Shown here: positions 48,838 through 58,022 of the stretch, one piece after another
Layout: the number at the start of each line of letters is the position of its first letter
Numbering within the stretch: position 1 is the first letter of the stretch
NCBI GenBank assembly: GCA_965225945.1
Contig: CBDDBZ010000038.1
Span: 32,001-96,000 of the forward strand
Reading direction: 5' to 3'
From: Alphaproteobacteria bacterium
GTDB taxonomy: Bacteria > Pseudomonadota > Alphaproteobacteria > GCA-2731375
Length of the DNA stretch: 64,000 nt
Position numbers and translations under genes: made by a program
Notes under the pieces: generated by a model
The model's database searches: none
Told to the model about the DNA's origin: nothing
The model's input: only the letters and a program-made list of their open reading frames with translations

Positions 48838-50417
48838 CTCACCACCCATCAATTTCTCCAGACTTCCCAGAGGGGCGGGAGGGGGATGAGTCGCTGGAGG
48901 CAGGTCTGGATGCGGCGGATGCCACGTTTGAACAGCGATGTCAGGCTGCGTAGCAGGTTGCGGGGTCGCTTTTCCGGCGGTTTTTTCGCCCGGGGTGGCC
49001 TTGTTGACCACGTCCCACATGCCGACGGACACGGCCCAGAACAGCGCCAGCGCCATGACCAGGATAAGGCGACCCAAGCGGTCGGTGCGTTGGATGTGGC
49101 TGTCCTCAATACCGAAGCCTCGGGTTTTGAAGTCGGAGAACATGGGTTCAATGCCCCACCGGAGCCCGTAATCGAAGGCCCGATGTTTGGTGGGGGCTTC
49201 GGACAGCGCGATGATCCAGGGCTCCGGGTGGCCCGCCTCGTGCACCATGGCGACGTTGGTGGCGACCCGCTTCTCGGTGAGGTCGATGCCGGTGAGCATG
49301 TGCTCGCCCCGGGCGAAACACTCGGCCAGGGTGGTCTCCCCACCGTCCTCGAACACCAACAGGTGCTGCTTGAGCCGCAAGCGCCAGTCCCAGCCCTGGT
49401 CCCGGCACCAGGCGATCAAGGCGGGCGAACCGTAGAAACGGTCGCCCATCAGCACAGGCTTGGCGCTGGCGGGCAGCAACGCCACGACCGCCTCCAATGC
49501 CTCGCGCTGCTCGCCAAAGCCGATCGCCCCTCGGGTCTCCTTGATCCGCCATGACAGCGGCAACGCCCGCCCGGCGATCCGCACCGCCACCATCACCGCC
49601 TGATGGCGGGCCGTCAACTGGGTCTGGTCCATGATCAGGACAATTTGTTGCCCGCCTGCCCCGACCCGCGCCAGAACGTCGCGTCCGTAAGGCGCCATCA
49701 CCGCGTCGACCTCGATCAAGTCGTTGCCCAAAAGCCGGCTGATCCACTGATAGCGCATGTCCAGCCGTTCTGCCGCACGCGGCAGGCGCGCGGCAGGGAC
49801 GCCGCCAAGTCCATCAGGTTCTCTGCCGCGCGCGGCAGGCCATCAGGTTCTCTGCCGCGCGCGGCAGGTCCATCAGGTTCTCTGCCGCGCGCGGCAGGGA
49901 CGCCGCCAAGTCCATCAGGTTCGCGGTCCAGCATCGTCGCCACCAAAAGCGACAGTCCCTCGCGCTGCTTCTTGTTCTGCCCGGCAAGACGTCAGCATCT
50001 CGATACCAACCAACTCCGCCTGTCGGATCATCAAGTTCTCTGCCGCGCGCGGCAGGTCCATCAGGTTCTCTGCCGCGCGCGGCAGGCGCGATCACGCCGC
50101 CAAGTCCATCAGGTTGCGGGGCAGGTGACGCTCTGCCGCGCCGGCAACGTCAGCGAGGTGAGGCTCCAGCATCGTCGCCGCGGCAGGGAAAGTCCATCAG
50201 GTTCGCGCTCCGAACGTCCAGCATCGTCGCCACCAAAAGCGACAGTCCCTCGCGCTGCTTCTTGTTCTGCCCGGCAAGACGCCCCAGCATGTCCTCACCG
50301 ATCGTCCCCGACAGCATCTCGATACCAACCATCCGTCGAACTCCGCCTGTGAAAAGGGCGGATTCCTTGAATCACATCAAGATTCTACAAGGCAAGCAAA
50401 ATCTGATGGGTGGTAAG
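48838..50417 (-). mobile_element. IS4-like (DDE_Tnp_1) element; transposase (50332 to about 48849) disrupted by scrambled duplications
   Basis: Inverted repeats CT(C/T)ACCACCCATCA; 9-bp duplication GCCGGAAAC; IMDQT, MGDRFY, YGLRWGIEPMFSDFK. Confidence 0.88.
49770..50204. repeat. Irregular tandem copies of an approximately 30-bp unit containing the palindrome CTGCCGCGCGCGGCAG
   Basis: At least 5 exact palindrome copies plus a partial duplication of 50217-50350. Confidence 0.85.
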
Positions 50418-52034
50418 GCCGGAAACCCCCGCCGCTTGACTTGCCGGGACAGCGGGGCCATAGTTGTGATTCGGCCCGAACCACTAGCGCCCACTCGGGA
50501 GCCCCGAATTGCCCGCTGCCCCGTCCGCCGGTCCCCACGCATCCTGGCTGGCCGGGGCGATGATCCAGGCGGCGCAACTGCACCGCGGGGGCCGTCTGGC
50601 CGAGGCGATCGCCGTTTACCGCCGGGTGATCAAGGCAACGCCGAAGACGGCGGAGGCGCACGACAACCTGGCCGTCGCCCTGCGCGCCGCCAGGCGGCCG
50701 CGGGAGGCGGTCGCCAGCTATCGCCGCGCCGTCAAGCTGCGCCCCCTACGCCATCGCCCAGTCCAACCTGGGGGCGCTGCTGGTCGGGCTGGGCAAGACC
50801 GAAGAGGGACTGGAGCACCTTGCCGGCGCCTATATGCATGCCGCCGGCGGCCCGGTGGCGCGCGATCGCCTGCTCGCCAACCTGGCGCCGCTGGCGCTGC
50901 CGCGCGCCGGTTCGCGGCTGCGCCGCGCCCTGGAGCGCCTGGCCGCCGATCCGGAGATCGACCCGCAGCGCCTGGCCCAACCCGGCGTCGCCCTGTTGCG
51001 GCGGCAGCCACCGGTGGCGAAGCTGCTGGAGCAACTGGCGGCGGACAGCACCGCCGCGCTGGTCGCCGGGACGCTGCCGCGCGGCCTCTATGAGGCGCTC
51101 GCCGCACCCTTGCCGCTCGTGCTGCTGAGCGACGCGCTGATCGCCGATGCCGGGATCGAGGCGCTGCTGGTGGCGCTGCGGCGACTGTGGCTGGCGCAGG
51201 CCTGCGGCGCCGCGGACGGAGCGCCGCCGCCGCACGGGCTGTTCGCCGCCGTCGCGTTGCAGGCGGCGGCCGGCGAGTGGGTCTGGCCGGAAAGCGCGCC
51301 GGAGCGTGACCAGGTGGACCTGCTGGCCGGGCGCCTGGCCGCCCGTGGCGGGAACGCGGCGCTCGACGAGACGCTGCTCGCCCATGCCCTCTACCGACCG
51401 CTGGAGACCCTGCCGGAGGCGCAGACAGCGGCGCTGCGCGAGCTGGGCGGGACATTGCCGGCGGGACCGGCCCGCGATCTGCTCGCGCGCCACCTGACGG
51501 AGCCGCGCGAGGAGGCCACCCTAGCCGCCGCGCTGCCGCGGCTGACCGAGGTCGCTGACGCCACTTCGCGGCGGGTGCAGGCGCAGTACGAGGAGAACGC
51601 CTACCCGCGCTGGCGGCGGCTGACCCGGCGCCCGGCGCGGCCGCTGGCCGAGGTGCTGCGTGAACAGTTGCCGGGCGCGCCGCTGGCGGTGCCGCTGGCC
51701 GAGGCGCCCCGCGTGCTGGTCGCCGGCTGCGGCACCGGCCACCACGCGCTGGCCACCGCCACCCGCTTTGCCGGCGCCCGGGTGCTGGCAATCGACCTCA
51801 GCCGCGCCGCGCTCGGCTTCGCCGCCCGCCAGGCGCGCGACCTCGGTATCGGGGGTATCGAGTTCGCGCAGGCCGATATCCTCGGCCTCGCGGCGCTGGA
51901 GCAGCGCTTCGACCTGATCGAATGCTCCGGCTGTCGGTGGCGATGAAAAACCGCGCTTAGATGGTGATTTCAGCGACATCGGGCATCGTGGCGCTGTAGC
52001 TGCGTGGTTTGCAGGCGGGAGTTGGCTCGGCGCA

Positions 52035-52102
52035 GCGGTGGGTAAGTAGCCCGCCGCAGCGACCGCCAAGAGTCTGGCGGCGGCGGGCTGCTTATCCACC
52101 GC
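52035..52102 (+). other. Long hairpin (23-bp stem with two G-U pairs plus 5-bp inner stem)
   Basis: GCGGTGGGTAAGTAGCCCGCCGC pairs with GCGGCGGGCTGCTTATCCACCGC. Confidence 0.75.
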
Positions 52103-52156
52103 GGGCGGGCGTCTCGATTCCTGTTTTGGCTGGCTGGCGGCGGCGGTTCCGCGGAC

Positions 52157-52184
52157 CTGACAAGGGGAGCCGCGGGAGTACACT
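52157..52184 (+). promoter_or_regulatory. Putative sigma70 promoter CTGACA-N16-TACACT
   Basis: Near-consensus -35/-10 pointing into the element operon. Confidence 0.5.
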
Positions 52185-52187
52185 CGG

Positions 52188-52326
52188 GCCGCTGAGAACG
52201 ATGCGGCGCCGGCCCCGTTTGCTTGCTGGCAACGACCGGCACCGCACCCCCCGAGCCATGCAAGGCACGACCCATATGCGCAGTATCGTGCGGGTTTGGG
52301 CGTGGGTCCACCCCGTTCTCATCGGC
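52188..52326 (+). ncRNA. Putative structured RNA or 5' leader (three-way junction)
   Basis: Stems TGAGAACG/CGTTCTCA, TGCGGCGCCGG/CCGGCACCGCA, CCCGAGCC/GGTTTGGG, GCACGA/TCGTGC. Confidence 0.5.
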
Positions 52327-52332
52327 TGCGCG

Positions 52333-52773
52333 ATGAAGAACACCGCCCGCCTGTTCAACTGCGCCTCGTGCCATCAACAGGTGGTTCTCTGCCGGCACTG
52401 CGACCACGGCAACATCTACTGTTCACGGAGCTGCAGCGATCGGGTGCGCCGGCGATCGCAGCGCCATGCCGGGCAGCGCTACCAGAACAGCCGGCGGGGC
52501 CGTCACAAGCATGCTGAGCGCCAGCGGCGCTATCGCGAACGCCGGCGGCGCCGGACGCCGGTGAATCGGCGCCGCGGGCAGGAAGTGACGCATCACCCTT
52601 TGACCGCCGCGCGGCGGCGTCCTGTTGTGGCGCGGACGCCGGCAGGGCGTCCCGGAACACGGCCCTTCGGGCACGAGCGGCCCGCCAGGGTCTTCCGCTG
52701 CGATCGCTGCGGCCGGTTCTGCGGGCAGGCGGTCTATCCGGGGCTGCGCCCGACGGGAAAGGGGGTGAGATGA
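52333..52773 (+). CDS. Cys-rich Zn-finger, Arg-rich hypothetical protein (IS21 accessory)
   Basis: CASC, CRHC, CSRSC, CDRC..C; basic helix; ATGA overlap with istA. Confidence 0.75.
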
Positions 52774-54275
52774 CCATCGACAAGGAGACCCGCGCGGAGA
52801 TCCTGCGCCTGTATCACGTCGAGAAGTGGACGGTCGGCACGATCACACGCCAGCTCGGCGTGCATCGCTACACCGTCGAGCGCCTCCTCACCGCGGCCGG
52901 CGAGCCCCGGGACGCGAGGTCGCCCAGGCCGTCGATGATCGATCCATACGTGCCGTTCATCGCCGAGACGCTGGCATCCTGGCCGACGCTGCCCGCCAGC
53001 CGGCTCTACCAGATGGTGCGCGAACGCGGCTATCCGGGCGGCGGCGACCACTTCCGTCATCTGCTCAGCCACTTCAGGCCCAGGCCCGTGGCCGAGGCCT
53101 ATCTGCGCCTCAAGACCCTTCCCGGCGAGCAGGCCCAGGTCGACTGGGGACACTTCGGCAAGGTGACGATCGGCCGCGCGGAGCGCCGCCTGATGGGCTT
53201 CGTGATGGTTCTCAGCTACTCGCGGCGGATCTTCCTGCGCTTCTACCTCGACGCCGGGATGAGCAACTTCCTGCGCGGCCATGTCGAAGCCTTCGAGGCG
53301 TGGCAGGGCGTGCCCCGCGAGCTCTGGTACGACAACCTGAAGAGCGTCGTGCTGGAGCGCCGCGGCGCCGCCATCCGGTTCAATCCCCGGATCCTCGACC
53401 TCGCCGGCCACTACCACTTCCTGCCCAAGCCCGTCGCGGTCGCGCGCGGCAACGAGAAGGGGCGCGTGGAGCGGGCGATTCGCTATGTCCGGACCAGCTT
53501 CTTCGCCGCCCGCCGGTGGCGCGATATCGACGATCTCAACGCCCAGGCCCTGGCCTGGTGCCACGGCATCGCCGCCGACCGCCCCTGGCCCGAAGACCGC
53601 TCGATCACCGTGCGCGAGGCCTTCGAGCGGGAACGCGGCTCTCTCATCGCGCTGCCCGGCGATCCCTTCCCCGACCACGACCGGGTCGAGGTCGCCATCG
53701 GCAAGACCCCCTACGCCCGCTTCGATCTCAACGATTACAGCGTGCCGCACACCCATGTGCGGCGCACCCTCGTCGTGGTCGCGACGCTCGACGAGGTGCG
53801 CATCCTCGACGGTGTGGACGTCATCGCCAGCCATCCGCGCAGCTTCGACAAGGCGGCCCGCATCGAGAACCCCGAGCACATCGCCGAGCTGGTCAGGCGC
53901 AAGAGCCATGCCCGCCGCCTTCGCGGCCAGGACCGGCTGGTCCAGGCCGCGCCCAACAGCGAGCGCCTGCTCGCCGAGGCCGCCCAGCGCGGCGGCTATA
54001 TAGGCGCCACCGTCGCCGCCCTGTTGCGCCTCCTCGACGCCTACGGCGCCGCCGAGCTCGAGGCGGCCATCGACGAGGCCCTGAAGCGGGACGTTCCCCA
54101 TCCCAACGCCGTGCGCCTGAGCCTGACCCGGCGGCGCGAGCTGCGGCACCAACCCCCGCCCATCCCCGTCGAACTGCCCGGCGATCCGAGAGTGCGCGAC
54201 ATCACTGTCCGCGATCACGACCTCGTCGGATACGACGGGCTGGCCGGCGAACCCGAGGAGGACAGCGAGCAATGA
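52770..54275 (+). CDS. istA: IS21 transposase
   Basis: N-terminal HTH, QAQVDWG, YDNLKS, KGRVER. Confidence 0.95.
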
Positions 54276-55060
54276 ACGATACCCTCATGGGCCGTGCCCG
54301 GGCGCTCGGCCTGCACGGCCTCGCCGCCCACTGGGGCGAGGTCGCCGGGCATGACTGGCCCGCTGCGCTGGTCGCCTGGGAAGAGGAGGAACGGCGAAGC
54401 CGCAGCCTCAAGCGCCGCCTCGGCGACGCCCGCCTCGGACAGTTCAAGCCGCTCGCCGACTTCGACTGGGCATGGCCGCGCCGCTGCGACCGCATGGCCG
54501 TCGAGGATCTCATGAGCCTCGAGTTCCTCAACGAGGCCGCCAACGTCGTCCTGGTCGGCCCAAACGGCGTCGGCAAGTCGACCATCGCCGCCAATATCGC
54601 CCACCGCGCCGTCCTCGAGGGCCACACCGTGCGCTTCGCCACCGCGGCCAGCATGCTCGGCGAGCTCGCCGCCCTCGACAGCGACACCCTGCTTCAGCGC
54701 AGGCTGCGCTTCTACGCCCGCCAGCACCTGCTGGTGATCGACGAGGTCGGATACCTGTCCTACAGCAACCGCCATGCCGATCTGCTGTTCAACATCGTCT
54801 CCAGCCGCAGCCAGCAGAACTCCACCATAATCACCACCAACCGGCCCTTCGCCGAGTGGGGTGAGGCCTTCCCCAACGCCGCCTGCCTCGTCGCCCTGGT
54901 CGACCGCCTCGTCCACAACGCCGAGATCATCGCCATCGACGCCGAGTCCTGGCGCCGCAAGGAGGCCGAGGAACGCCAGAAGCAGCGCAGCGCCGAGCGC
55001 CGCCGGCGGCGAGCCGGCAAGGCCGGCGCGCAGGACCGCGGGGAACCGCCGCCGGCGTAG
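54272..55060 (+). CDS. istB: IS21 helper ATPase
   Basis: [26 protein letters not shown]. Confidence 0.95.
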
Positions 55061-55062
55061 CC

Positions 55063-55959
55063 ATGGATGGTCCCCGCCTCTGGGACCGGCGGGTGCGGGC
55101 CGAGGCCCTGCGAGGCTATCCCCTCGAAGACGTCGTCCGCCGCCTCGGCTACCGCCGCGATCCCACCGATGCCGCGCGCTGGAGGCGTCCCGGATCCGTC
55201 GTCAGCATCAACGGCTTTATGTTCTACGAACATCTGCGCGGCGAGGGCGGGGGCGGAGCGATCGACCTGGTAATCCATGCCTGCCGGTGCACCGTGCCCG
55301 AGGCCCTCGGCTTCTTCTCGGAACTGCCGTGCCGTGACCGGTTCCCGGCCGATCGCCACCCGAAGCCGCCGTGCCCGGACCGCCACTGGCCCGCCATCCA
55401 GAGCTACCTCGTCGAGCAGCGCGGCCTCGCGGATGTGCTCGTCGCCCTGTGCCGCGACCTCGGCTTGCTCTACGCCGACCGCCACGGCAACGCCGTGTTC
55501 GTCCGCCGAAACGCGGCCGGCGAGGCTCTCGGCGCCGAGATCGTCCCTGCCGCGGCGCCACGCCGCCTCGCGCCGACCGGCGCCGCCGCGCGCGGCGGCT
55601 TCTGGATATCGTGGGAACCCGACTGGCCGAACTCCGTCATCCTCGCCAAGAACGCAATCGACGCCCTGTCGGTCCTCTCCCTCCACCTCGTCCCGGCCGG
55701 GCGCAAGGGATGCGCCGTGGTCTCAACCGGCGGCGCCACCGCAAGCCTCCCCGAATGGATCGAGGCCTGGAACCCCGGCCGGATCTTCTGCGCCTACGAC
55801 GCCACCCGCCAGGGCGATGACGCCGCGGCACGGCTCATCCGAAACGACAGCAGGGTCGTCCGCCTGCGCCCTGCCCTCGACGGCCTGGACTGGAACGACA
55901 TGCTCATGCGCGACCGCGCCGGCGAACCGCTCCAGATCGATGACCGGCCCCTCGACTGA
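55063..55959 (+). CDS. Primase-like protein (DUF3991/Toprim-like) with degenerate active site
   Basis: GGGGAIDLV, YL..RGL, LYAD..NAVF, AIDALS, STGG, AYD, DWND. Confidence 0.7.
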   Translation: MDGPRLWDRRVRAEALRGYPLEDVVRRLGYRRDPTDAARWRRPGSVVSINGFMFYEHLRGEGGGGAIDLVIHACRCTVPEALGFFSELPCRDRFPADRHPKPPCPDRHWPAIQSYLVEQRGLADVLVALCRDLGLLYADRHGNAVFVRRNAAGEALGAEIVPAAAPRRLAPTGAAARGGFWISWEPDWPNSVILAKNAIDALSVLSLHLVPAGRKGCAVVSTGGATASLPEWIEAWNPGRIFCAYDATRQGDDAAARLIRNDSRVVRLRPALDGLDWNDMLMRDRAGEPLQIDDRPLD

Positions 55960-56210
55960 ATAGCCACAGCGCGAAACAAAATCAGCCAAGCCCAAAAGCA
56001 TCCCGTCAGCCAACCGCCACCGACCGCTCAAAAAGAGCACCATATAAGCGCACCCTGGAACCACCGCTAACACCGGCACGCTGCACCACATGGCGGACCC
56101 GGAGGCCGGCTGGCGGGTGCTGCGCGGCCTGCTCGCACGGCGCGGCCTGATGCGCATCGGCCTCTACAGCGAGCGCGGGCGCGCCGATGTAGTGGCGCTG
56201 CAGGAGCTAA

Positions 56211-57380
56211 TACCAATCGGCATTAACCAGAACTCATGCGCCCATTTACGCCGCCCGATGGACGTGATGTTCCATGGTTGATCGATGAGCTTGTTCCAGG
56301 CTTCGCAGCAGGAGGTGATGATCTGCTCGTCGGATTGGAAGACCAAGTTGGACAGCCAGTTGTCGCGCATGAACTGCCAGATGTTTTCGGTCGGATTGAG
56401 CTCCGGCGAGCGTGGTGGCAGGGGCAGGAGGGTAACGTTGGCGGGGATCTTCAGCTTGTCCGTGGTGTGCCAACCCGCCTGATCGAGGAGCAGGAGGGCA
56501 TGCGCGCGCGCGCCTACCCGGGAGGAGATCTCCTCCAGATGCAGCTGCATGGCCTGGGTGTCGCAGTGGGGGAGCACGAGGGCGGCGCCGACGCCGCGTT
56601 CGGGACAGATGGCGCCGAAGATATAGGCTGATTTGGTGCGCTGGTCATGCGGTGCGCGGGGCCGGGTTCCGCGCCGCGCCCAGCGCCGAGTGATCTTGTT
56701 CTTCTGGCCGACACGGGCTTCGTCCTGCCACCAGATTTCTATCTCGGTGCCGTCGGGCAGGCGCCGGCGAGCTTGCGCCACCAGCTCGGGGAATTTTTTT
56801 AAAATCCTCGATGACGCCCTCCTCCTGGGCATGGTGGCGCGGACGCGCCGTCATCTTCGTGAAGCCCGTCGCCTTCAATTCCCGGCTCACCGTGGTCTCG
56901 TCGAGCGAGATCGCGAACATATCCCGGATCCAGCCCGCCAGATCCTTCAGCCGCCAGCGCACCACGCCGTCGACCGCCGGGTTCGGCCCCGCATCGACGC
57001 GTGCCCCCAGCGCCTGGCGTTGTGCATCGTCGAGCTTCGCCACCGCACCGGGCGCCTTGCGATCGATCAAGCCGTCCGGGCCCTCGGCGTTGAAATGCAA
57101 CACCCAATCTCGGATCACCTGAAGCCCCACGTGGCCGGTCCGTGCCGCATCCGTCCGCCGCCCACCGTCATAGATCACCGCGAGAGCCAAGAGCCGGCGG
57201 CTCTGGCCGGCATCCTTGGAAAGCTTCGCCAAGCGACGCAGCTCCGCCGCATCGAAATCCTCTCGTAACCCGATCGCCGCTCCCATGGTGAACCTCCTCA
57301 ACTCCGAATCACCGGAATTGAGTCAGAAATCATCCACCATGGGAATCCTCAAAGTGAGTCTCCCTCAAGGCCGATTGGTA
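56211..57380 (-). mobile_element. IS630-family element; transposase from 57286 with slippery site near 56794-56804
   Basis: Inverted repeats TACCAATCGGC; TA(A) duplication; WQDEAR, LDQAGWH, SPELNPTENIW; TTTTAAAAAAA between orfA and orfB. Confidence 0.92.
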
Positions 57381-57874
57381 TAATCGCCCGCGAGGGCTGG
57401 CAGCCGACGGCCGAGGGCATCCGCGCGGTGCGTGCGGCGTGGCGCGATCCACCCGCCGGTTCGTCGGCGCCGCCGTTGACCGAGAGCCCTGATTTCTTCT
57501 CGCTGAGCGGCTGCCGCGACATGCTGTTCCACGTGCGGGAGGTGCGCTTCGATCCGCCGCGCATAGCCCGCGCCCTGGCGGAGCTGGATCTCGTCTTCGC
57601 CGGTTTCGAGCTGCCGGACGAGTCGATCCGCCGCGCCTTCGCACAGCACTTTCCGGCGCCCGAGGCGCGGCACGACCTCGCCGCCTGGGACCAGTTCGAG
57701 GCGGAGAACCCGGCGGTATTCGCCGCGATGTACCAGTTCTGGTGCCAGGCCGGATAAGTCTCCCGCCATTCTACCCCCCACCGCCATGCGCACAGCATAG
57801 GCGATGACGGCGCAGACGCCGCCGACGCCCACGGTCTCGCCGACGCGGCGGGTGAACGCCTGCGCCTTCGTCAG

Positions 57875-57914
57875 CGCCTTCTCCTCTGCCGGCATGCCGG
57901 CAGAGGAGAAGGCG
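57875..57914. repeat. Perfect 40-bp palindrome
   Basis: CGCCTTCTCCTCTGCCGGCATGCCGGCAGAGGAGAAGGCG. Confidence 0.9.
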
Positions 57915-58022
57915 GAGCGGAACCTGCGGCTGTTCTCGGAGACGGTGCTACCGCGCTTGCACACCCATGACGCGGGCGGCGCCATCGACCGTTCCGACGA
58001 ATTCGCCCAGGCCGCCGAATAG
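57888..58022 (+). pseudogene. C-terminal fragment of an LLM-class monooxygenase
   Basis: GMPAEEKAERNLRLFSETVLPRL resembles LLM C-termini. Confidence 0.5.

Follow-up and report, generated by a model that had tools for sequence, protein, structure and literature searches.

A conserved, covarying RNA region in the left end of an IS21-family element, with hairpins that appear to be selected on the antisense strand

In this study, we analyzed a 64,000-nucleotide stretch of an Alphaproteobacteria bacterium genome (assembly GCA_965225945.1, contig CBDDBZ010000038.1, positions 32,001 to 96,000), here called the window, and in particular the noncoding left end of an IS21-family element that lies upstream of its zinc-finger (ZnF) gene. 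Comparison with relatives indicates that the region just before the ZnF start codon is functional and that its RNA structure is real; it shows conservation, covariation, a marked strand asymmetry, a fixed motif geometry, and alternative pairings. Two of its hairpins, P2 and P3, carry the signature of selection in RNA from the minus strand, that is, antisense to the leader of the ZnF-istA-istB operon. The explanation toward which we lean is a sense/antisense RNA pair, similar to that of IS10, that would control translation of the transposase operon. The features on which the argument depends are as follows.

52157..52184 (+): sense promoter (P-in), -35 CTGACA, 16-bp spacer, -10 TACACT; inferred start at about 52190-52192
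52190..52332 (+): sense 5' leader of the ZnF-istA-istB operon, noncoding, within the covariance-model match
52187..52200 (+): segment A, GGCCG-c-UGAGAACG, the 5' strand of the closing stem P1; its sequence resembles the start-codon region
52314..52327 (+): segment B, CGUUCUCAUCGGCU, partner of A (P1) or of C (AUG-sequestering hairpin)
52331..52341 (+): segment C, CGAUGAAGAAC, which contains the ZnF AUG (52333-52335) and is the 3' strand of the sequestering hairpin
52202..52246 (-): hairpin P2/P2', an 11- to 13-bp stem topped by an apical stem; fully paired on the minus strand, where one pair is G-U, with a C-A mismatch on the plus strand
52255..52271 (-): hairpin P3/P3', 7 bp with a triloop; two plus-strand mismatches are G-U on the minus strand
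52267..52303 (+): hairpin P4 of the sense leader, in the plus-strand fold; its loop contains AGUAUC, the complement of the antisense -10
52282..52310 (-): putative antisense promoter (P-out), -35 TGGACC at 52310-52305, 17-bp spacer, -10 GATACT at 52287-52282; inferred start at about 52275
52186..52275 (-): putative antisense RNA of about 90 nt, with terminal stem P0', then P3' and P2'

The comparison was based on 96 nonredundant representatives, picked by a k-mer filter from 111 distinct sequences upstream of ZnF genes; 11 loci gave no regular-expression match for the ZnF start. A covariance model (R1) was built from a seed alignment of 47 of these 96 leaders, chosen by eye, and comprised P1 (9 bp), P2 (13 bp), and P3 (6 bp). 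It matched 85 of the 96 loci at an E value of ≤5e-5, all on the strand of the ZnF gene and all ending at ATG+9. The match in the window spans 52182-52341 (109.7 bits; E = 1.6e-28), and there are 22 matches in the genome to which the window belongs. Model R1 missed the L071 family (L071, L072, L075-L077, L079, and L081) as well as L084, L106, and L147, and it matched L114 at an E value of 3e-4; despite being missed, the L071 family has the same leader architecture by eye. Among alphaproteobacterial relatives, the leader DNA is 75-91% identical, and the order of the motifs is kept in distant relatives from Gammaproteobacteria, Gemmatimonadota, Legionellaceae, Limisphaerales, and metagenomes. For loci L017 and L018, DNA identity over 52159-52325 is 89-91% versus 77-78% for the protein; for L051, protein identity is 74% across 62 residues only. 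A decayed copy in a Defluviicoccus metagenome-assembled genome (L045:4790-5010), which was excluded from one alignment, lacks the leader's 5' half, with segment A and the 5' arm of P2 deleted, and has also lost the ZnF ATG.

Covariation across these homologues, which the first-pass annotation of the region had named as a test of its structure, was found. In the plus-strand alignment fitted to the model, 88.8% of cells pair and compensatory change is seen in 23 of 28 pairs; double-change cells numbered 219, compared with 66.5 ± 6.9 after shuffling (0 of 500 shuffles reached the observed value) and 14-40 when the partners were slid. Because a fitted alignment leans toward its own model, covariation was tested again on an unfitted MAFFT alignment of the minus strand, with 82 of the 85 matches (L073, which is truncated, and L057 and L153, which are among the three weakest, were excluded). 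Here, 91.2-91.4% of cells pair, 22-23 of 25 pairs are compensatory, and double-change cells numbered 203-210, compared with about 65 ± 9 after shuffling (0/500) and 16-67 after sliding. The search against Rfam 15 found nothing at an E value of ≤1 that overlaps 52157-52341 on either strand within 50000-58000 of the window and nothing that overlaps the leader region in six diverse relatives, so that the Rfam scan suggested in the first pass returned no match. The region thus represents a new RNA family, absent from Rfam and with strong covariation.

The strand in which the hairpins are maintained can be read from their non-Watson-Crick cells. On the plus strand, P2 has 120 A-C versus 2 G-U cells and P3 has 45 A-C versus 9 G-U cells, whereas the minus-strand version of P2 has 136 G-U versus 6 A-C cells. 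P2 pairs in 95.2% of cells on the minus strand versus 82.8% on the plus strand. All 10 pairs of the P2' core covary, with 96.4% of cells pairing; for P3', 96.3% of cells pair and four of six pairs covary, as seen in aligned rows such as CATG/CATG, CGCG/CGCG, and CGTG/CACG. In the window itself, C52207/A52241, C52256/A52270, and A52258/C52268 are mismatched on the plus strand and are G-U pairs on the minus strand. The minus-strand G-U cells are spread over at least 10 different pairs and hence do not reflect a single inherited accident. Folding of the 92-nt overlap region agrees in direction: the minus strand reaches -51.0 kcal/mol (z = -3.36; none of 200 shuffles equally good), and the plus strand reaches -35.4 kcal/mol (z = -1.07; 29 of 200 shuffles equally good). 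On these comparative grounds, the G-U versus A-C asymmetry indicates that selection acts on P2 and P3 in RNA of the minus strand, which is antisense to the leader. The initial claim that some pairs work only as G-U on the plus strand holds for the closing stem (G52187-U52327) and the 52267-52303 hairpin and is reversed in P2 and P3.

The remaining helices behave otherwise. P1, the AUG hairpin, and P4 can form only in a plus-strand transcript that spans the whole region. The AUG hairpin leans plus (47 versus 35), as does P4 (96 G-U versus 66 A-C cells on the plus strand), although the P4 count is noisy; P4 helices in relatives include CCCGAG/CTCGGG and CCCGTC/GACGGG.

The sense promoter noted in the first pass, CTGACA-N16-TACACT, was recovered at 52157-52184 as the sole sigma-70-like site within 51850-52450; it has 9/12 matches, which was also the cutoff of the scan, where shuffles expect 0.0. 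It is kept in relatives: TGACA occurs at a fixed distance in 66 of 85, followed by TA 16-17 bp later. We infer from this geometry that the sense RNA starts at or just before GGCCG. The predicted minimum-energy fold of 52186-52332 on the plus strand contains the closing stem (about 52187-52200 with 52314-52327) and the first hairpin (52202-52246), both as originally described; the second hairpin that had been described (52249-52300) instead splits into three smaller ones, namely, a short hairpin, the longer 52267-52303 hairpin, and a small GGG/CCC hairpin. Between the end of the structure and the ZnF ATG lie 5-6 nt, and no Shine-Dalgarno sequence is visible by eye upstream of that ATG in the window, both in agreement with the earlier description. 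The plus-strand fold has an energy of -73.2 kcal/mol (z = -2.66; 3/200 shuffles equally good) and the minus-strand fold one of -77.1 kcal/mol (z = -2.70; 1/200), which is modestly better than chance and not strand specific. The window sequence alone decides nothing.

Segment B of the leader has two possible partners. Its pairing with A (P1) is present in 91.3% of cells in the fitted alignment, with double changes in seven of nine pairs, but these involve few cells; A:B covariation includes pair 16:243 (GC 75, AU 8) and pair 14:245 (GC 74, AU 5). Its pairing with C has the core CAUCGGC/GCCGAUG, the seven pairs of which are complementary in 51-84 of 85 relatives, and the five inner ones in 79-84 of 85. 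Rare B:C variants compensate, with CATCGT/ACGATG in L153 and TCAGC/GCTGA in L084. The B:C hairpin is present in the RNAalifold consensus and in the minimum-energy folds of L049, L053, L083, and L071, and in several families its loop carries a Shine-Dalgarno-like AGGAG. In the L071 family, A, B, and C are altered together (A, CTAATGAAACC; B, GGTTTCATTAG; C, GCTATGGAAC), and the evidence for segment A in this family is TAATGAAACC/GGTTTCATTA. In silico removal of the 5' part of the window leader lets B close on the AUG, which is then unpaired with a probability of 0.22 instead of 0.47. The earlier proposal of a translation-control leader is thus supported insofar as the region is conserved, structured, and noncoding and has a hairpin that occludes the start codon; it does not account for P2 and P3, which are selected on the minus strand.

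Two further conserved motifs lie on the plus strand between P3 and segment B. In A[G/T]TAT, the fixed letters occur in 83 (A), 75 (T), 75 (A), and 84 (T) of 85 relatives, and in TCCAG, TCCA occurs in 76-84 of 85. The stretch between the two motifs is variable in sequence, and only 1 of 85 relatives has an indel there. Read on the minus strand, they take the form TGGAYY-N17-nATA[C/A]T with a fixed 17-bp spacer, a promoter-like arrangement in which -11A is present in 84/85 and -7T in 83/85 relatives; -11A and -7T are the best-conserved positions of sigma-70 -10 elements. Transcription from this putative promoter would start at about 52275, about 7 nt past the -10 and 2-3 nt before P0', a terminal stem (52273-52268 with 52191-52186) that pairs both ends of the predicted ~90-nt minus-strand RNA. 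A per-sequence search, which replaced a noisy measurement on fixed alignment columns, found P0 with at least 5 bp in 58 of 85 relatives. Where P0 is present, a gap of 7-9 nt separates its 3' strand from the -10 in most cases, so that the antisense RNA would start at the foot of its own terminal stem. The tail after P0' has 43% T, compared with 22% in the body.

Assembled RNA-library contigs also cover the left end of the element. In one metatranscriptome study, contigs from runs X2-X4 span 51931-52236, 52070-52222, and 51932-52201 and continue into three different flanks, and run X1 yielded a single 4171-nt contig across the whole element, which could be DNA. RNA libraries thus contain the left end of the element linked to its flanks; contig depths, with lower figures for the ORF pieces in X2-X4, and the part left uncovered in those runs (about 52240-52380) carry no evidential weight.

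We propose that the weak internal promoter at 52157-52184 makes a ZnF-istA-istB mRNA with a leader of about 140 nt that could adopt two states. In one, B would pair with A (P1) and leave the AUG free; in the other, B would pair with C and hide it. The antisense promoter-like motif would make a small RNA leftward from about 52275, consisting of P3' and P2' closed by P0'; it would match the initial ~85 nt of the leader with full complementarity, segment A among them. A duplex between sense and antisense RNA, probably initiated at loop contacts of P2 and P3, would take A away, whereupon B would close on the AUG and ZnF translation would be switched off. Translation of IstA would also cease; here, the coupling of ZnF and IstA is inferred solely from the overlap of the ZnF stop with the istA ATG. 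With rising copy number, transposition would thereby be held in check, in the way that RNA-OUT restrains IS10.

Several observations weigh against this sense/antisense proposal. The start codon lies outside the putative antisense RNA, which could therefore act on it only indirectly, and P1 shows no strand preference (35 G-U versus 33 A-C cells). In L049, L083, and L071, the sequestering hairpin is already present in the fold of the full-length leader, which means that any "on" state would be kinetic, and truncation of the L119 leader had no effect. P1 appears in none of the minimum-energy folds of four relatives (L049, L083, L071, and L119), and the switch is accordingly without thermodynamic support beyond the family of the window. 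The antisense promoter of the window has 8/12 matches by manual count, below the cutoff of the promoter scan, which did not list it; at its -12 position, 62 of 85 relatives have G and only one has T, and the -35, TGGAYY, is unlike TTGACA. An alternative reading of the same conserved letters (AGUAU and UCCAG) is that they are motifs that function in the sense RNA. The window scan found no canonical terminator after the antisense hairpins, and the T-rich tail, present in 31 of 82 relatives, coincides with the sense -10 and is hence ambiguous. Finally, the RNA-library contigs are unstranded and show no transcript start or end.

Much of the same evidence can be read without an antisense RNA. P1 enclosing P2, P3, and P4 could form a single plus-strand 5' untranslated region (UTR) element that controls ZnF translation alone or through a protein or ligand; the conserved sense promoter, the restriction of P1 and the AUG hairpin to plus-strand RNA, the plus-strand leaning of P4, and the fact that model matches always end at the ATG are all in keeping with such a cis leader. 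We nevertheless consider it unlikely, given that P2 and P3 together hold 165 A-C versus 11 G-U cells on the plus strand, that the plus-strand fold of the overlap is no better than shuffles, and that a sense-only leader would not keep, at 10 or more positions, mismatches that wobble only on the other strand. It is similarly improbable that the minus-strand RNA has a function of its own, whether it works together with the Arg-rich ZnF protein or the transposition complex or comes from an outward promoter that acts mainly on flanking genes. Consistent with such a function, the RNA sequence is better conserved than the protein in L017 and L018, the ends of the RNA pair (P0') as in a discrete stable RNA, it always co-occurs with the ZnF gene, and contigs from RNA libraries run from the left end into three flanks; against it, target sites show no preference that fits a guide, the ZnF protein could be assigned to no RNA-binding family, and overlapping promoters plus two functional strands suffice to explain the high conservation. 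The guide role that had been put forward as speculation has no support and was rejected: seven of the eight copies with located ends have unrelated target repeats, even though 21 of the 22 copies share one RNA region by model score.

A signal at the level of DNA, with the inverted repeats serving as double-stranded protein-binding palindromes or as bottom-strand single-stranded DNA hairpins, would fit the nearly invariant palindrome CATCGGC-N7-GCCGATG, and G-T is tolerated in DNA hairpins too, which means that strand asymmetry alone is no proof of RNA. We regard this as very improbable, however: the compensatory changes at 22-23 of 25 pairs preserve pairing and not sequence, the site lies 255-400 bp inside the end, past the usual terminal binding repeats, and IS21 transposes as double-stranded DNA by means of a DDE transposase with IstB. 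A more speculative extension, to which we give little credence, is that the ~90-nt minus-strand RNA (P0'-P3'-P2') is also the dedicated structured partner of the Arg-rich ZnF protein, with the ribonucleoprotein either gating translation, in that it would open or close the AUG hairpin in the manner of Com, or joining IstA/IstB in transposition. If that were true, a DDE/AAA+ transposon family thought to be protein only would have an RNA component.

The proposed sense/antisense control is reminiscent of several known systems. IS10 is a member of the IS4 family and hence of another IS family, and it has no sequence or Rfam relation to the RNA of the IS21 element. The likeness lies in the arrangement: in IS10/Tn10, RNA-IN and RNA-OUT come from face-to-face promoters (pIN and pOUT) near the left end, RNA-OUT forms a stem-loop and is antisense to the start of the transposase mRNA, transcription from the outward promoter can enter the flanking DNA, and the system is sensitive to copy number, as described in a review (PMC9330008). 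Unlike in IS10, the predicted overlap in the IS21 element is about 85 nt long with two or three helices, ends about 58 nt short of the start codon, and would block translation indirectly; moreover, the first gene encodes the ZnF protein and not a transposase. IS200 offers a second parallel, since its tnpA mRNA has a 5' UTR stem-loop that hides the translation start and is also the target of a cis-encoded antisense RNA, art200; a hairpin over the translation start combined with a cis-encoded antisense RNA is what is proposed for the IS21 element too. In the latter, however, one segment can pair with either A or C, the putative antisense RNA would target the alternative partner, and the transposase families are unrelated. 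In the R1 CopA/CopT and IncI/IncB Inc RNA-repZ systems, the antisense RNA likewise binds upstream of a structure-closed start and blocks a long-range opening pairing, but these plasmid copy-number systems control replication initiators and use leader peptides plus a pseudoknot, whereas no leader peptide is evident in the IS21 element. In phage Mu Com/mom, a small zinc-finger protein is combined with an mRNA hairpin that hides a start codon. This likeness provides a lead for the role of the ZnF protein, although in the IS21 element it is the ZnF gene itself that sits behind the hairpin, and the ZnF protein matched no Pfam family, Com included, at an E value of ≤0.01. Antisense-RNA control or promoters are listed for IS10, IS1999, IS30, and IS200 in section 4.5 of PMC9330008, where IS200 is cited as reference 127, and IS21 appears in that review only for fusion promoters and tandem dimers. 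A full-text literature search of main texts surfaced no publication describing such an RNA or antisense control in IS21. The proposed module resembles the control of IS10 or IS200 in its working, yet it lies outside any described RNA family.

These results tie a new RNA family to an uncharacterized zinc-finger gene in a widespread subgroup of IS21, which is a current structural model system. The module is a case in which one can test whether an antisense RNA acts on a structural switch and not on the ribosome-binding site itself, and it may help to explain the restraint of an element that has reached 22 copies in one genome. The results also illustrate that counts of G-U versus A-C cells across homologues can move a "leader structure" to the opposite strand.

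The element in which the region lies, and the genes it carries, are as follows.

51932..56072 (+): IS21-family element, 4141 bp, with the ZnF open reading frame (ORF), IstA, IstB, and a DUF3991/Toprim ORF
52333..52773 (+): ZnF ORF, 146 amino acids, Cys-rich N and C termini and an Arg-rich middle; its stop overlaps the IstA start (ATGA)
55063-55959: DUF3991/Toprim (primase-like) ORF, inside the element after IstB

The assignment to the IS21 family, already made from the sequence in the first-pass annotation, was borne out by profile matches of the tandemly encoded IstA (NCBIfam NF033546, IS21 transposase, 249.1 bits; cutoff, 160) and IstB (NCBIfam NF038214, 204.3 bits; cutoff, 200; Pfam PF01695, E = 1.7e-53). 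A DNA search of the genome to which the window belongs found 19 full-length copies of the 4141-bp element, 2 interrupted copies, and 1 fragment, 22 in all, at 99-100% identity. The element has IS21-type terminal inverted repeats beginning with TGT (left end, TGTCGGTGG; complement of the right end, TGTTAGCGGTGG), and the copy in the window is bordered by a 5-bp target duplication, CCGGC (51927-51931 and 56073-56077), and disrupts a methyltransferase ORF. Ten loci were examined for direct repeats; in seven of the eight copies with located ends, they are 5-7 bp long and mutually unrelated, and L007 has none. The conserved RNA region occupies positions 255-400 of the element, the inner part of a 400-nt noncoding left end.

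What defines this IS21 subgroup is the ZnF ORF as an additional gene. Its product has an N-terminal CxxC...CxxC, an Arg-rich center, an invariant KVTH, and a C-terminal CxxC. The search recovered 218 homologues, most of them 144-151 amino acids long. The protein could be assigned to no family in Pfam, NCBIfam, a PDB profile search, or the Atlas, and its sole hint was to ribosomal protein uS14 (E = 0.08). The start codon is ATG 52333-52335, with M1 invariant in 33 of 33 aligned homologues. The reading frame is open upstream back to 52009; the possibility that the leader is coding sequence was rejected in view of the same Met start in all 33. The gene was found in 270 of 307 candidate stretches from species-representative genomes and in at least 583 metagenome stretches. 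Of 47 loci with sufficient downstream sequence, 44 have IstA after ZnF, and 37 have IstA plus IstB. The Toprim gene is present in 22 of these 47, and those inspected individually were all alphaproteobacterial; the other 25 have no downstream Toprim match, 15 of them having IstA and IstB only.

Upstream of the sense promoter, at 52030-52107, lies a long, near-perfect hairpin with 26-nt arms that are 88% complementary. It is 4-13 kcal/mol more stable on the plus strand in the window and in 10 of 10 alphaproteobacterial relatives tested (in the window, -62.2 kcal/mol on the plus strand versus -51.8 kcal/mol on the minus strand), and G-U pairs are more common on the plus strand in the same set. 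This hairpin may act on transcripts that enter from outside the element. A mir-B6 match at 52034-52103 (31 bits versus a gathering score of 89) was dismissed as a chance match to this upstream palindrome.

Outside the IS21-family element, a different repeated element (56164-57301, minus strand) adjoins its right end; the first ~195 nt of this second element recur at 18 other places in the genome with 98-100% identity. On the left side, ORF translations from 49700-50330 contain the repeated peptides PRAAG, HQVLCRARQV, and SARDCRFWWRRCW in several frames and in tandem-looking order, which suggests a repeat array upstream of the methyltransferase gene.

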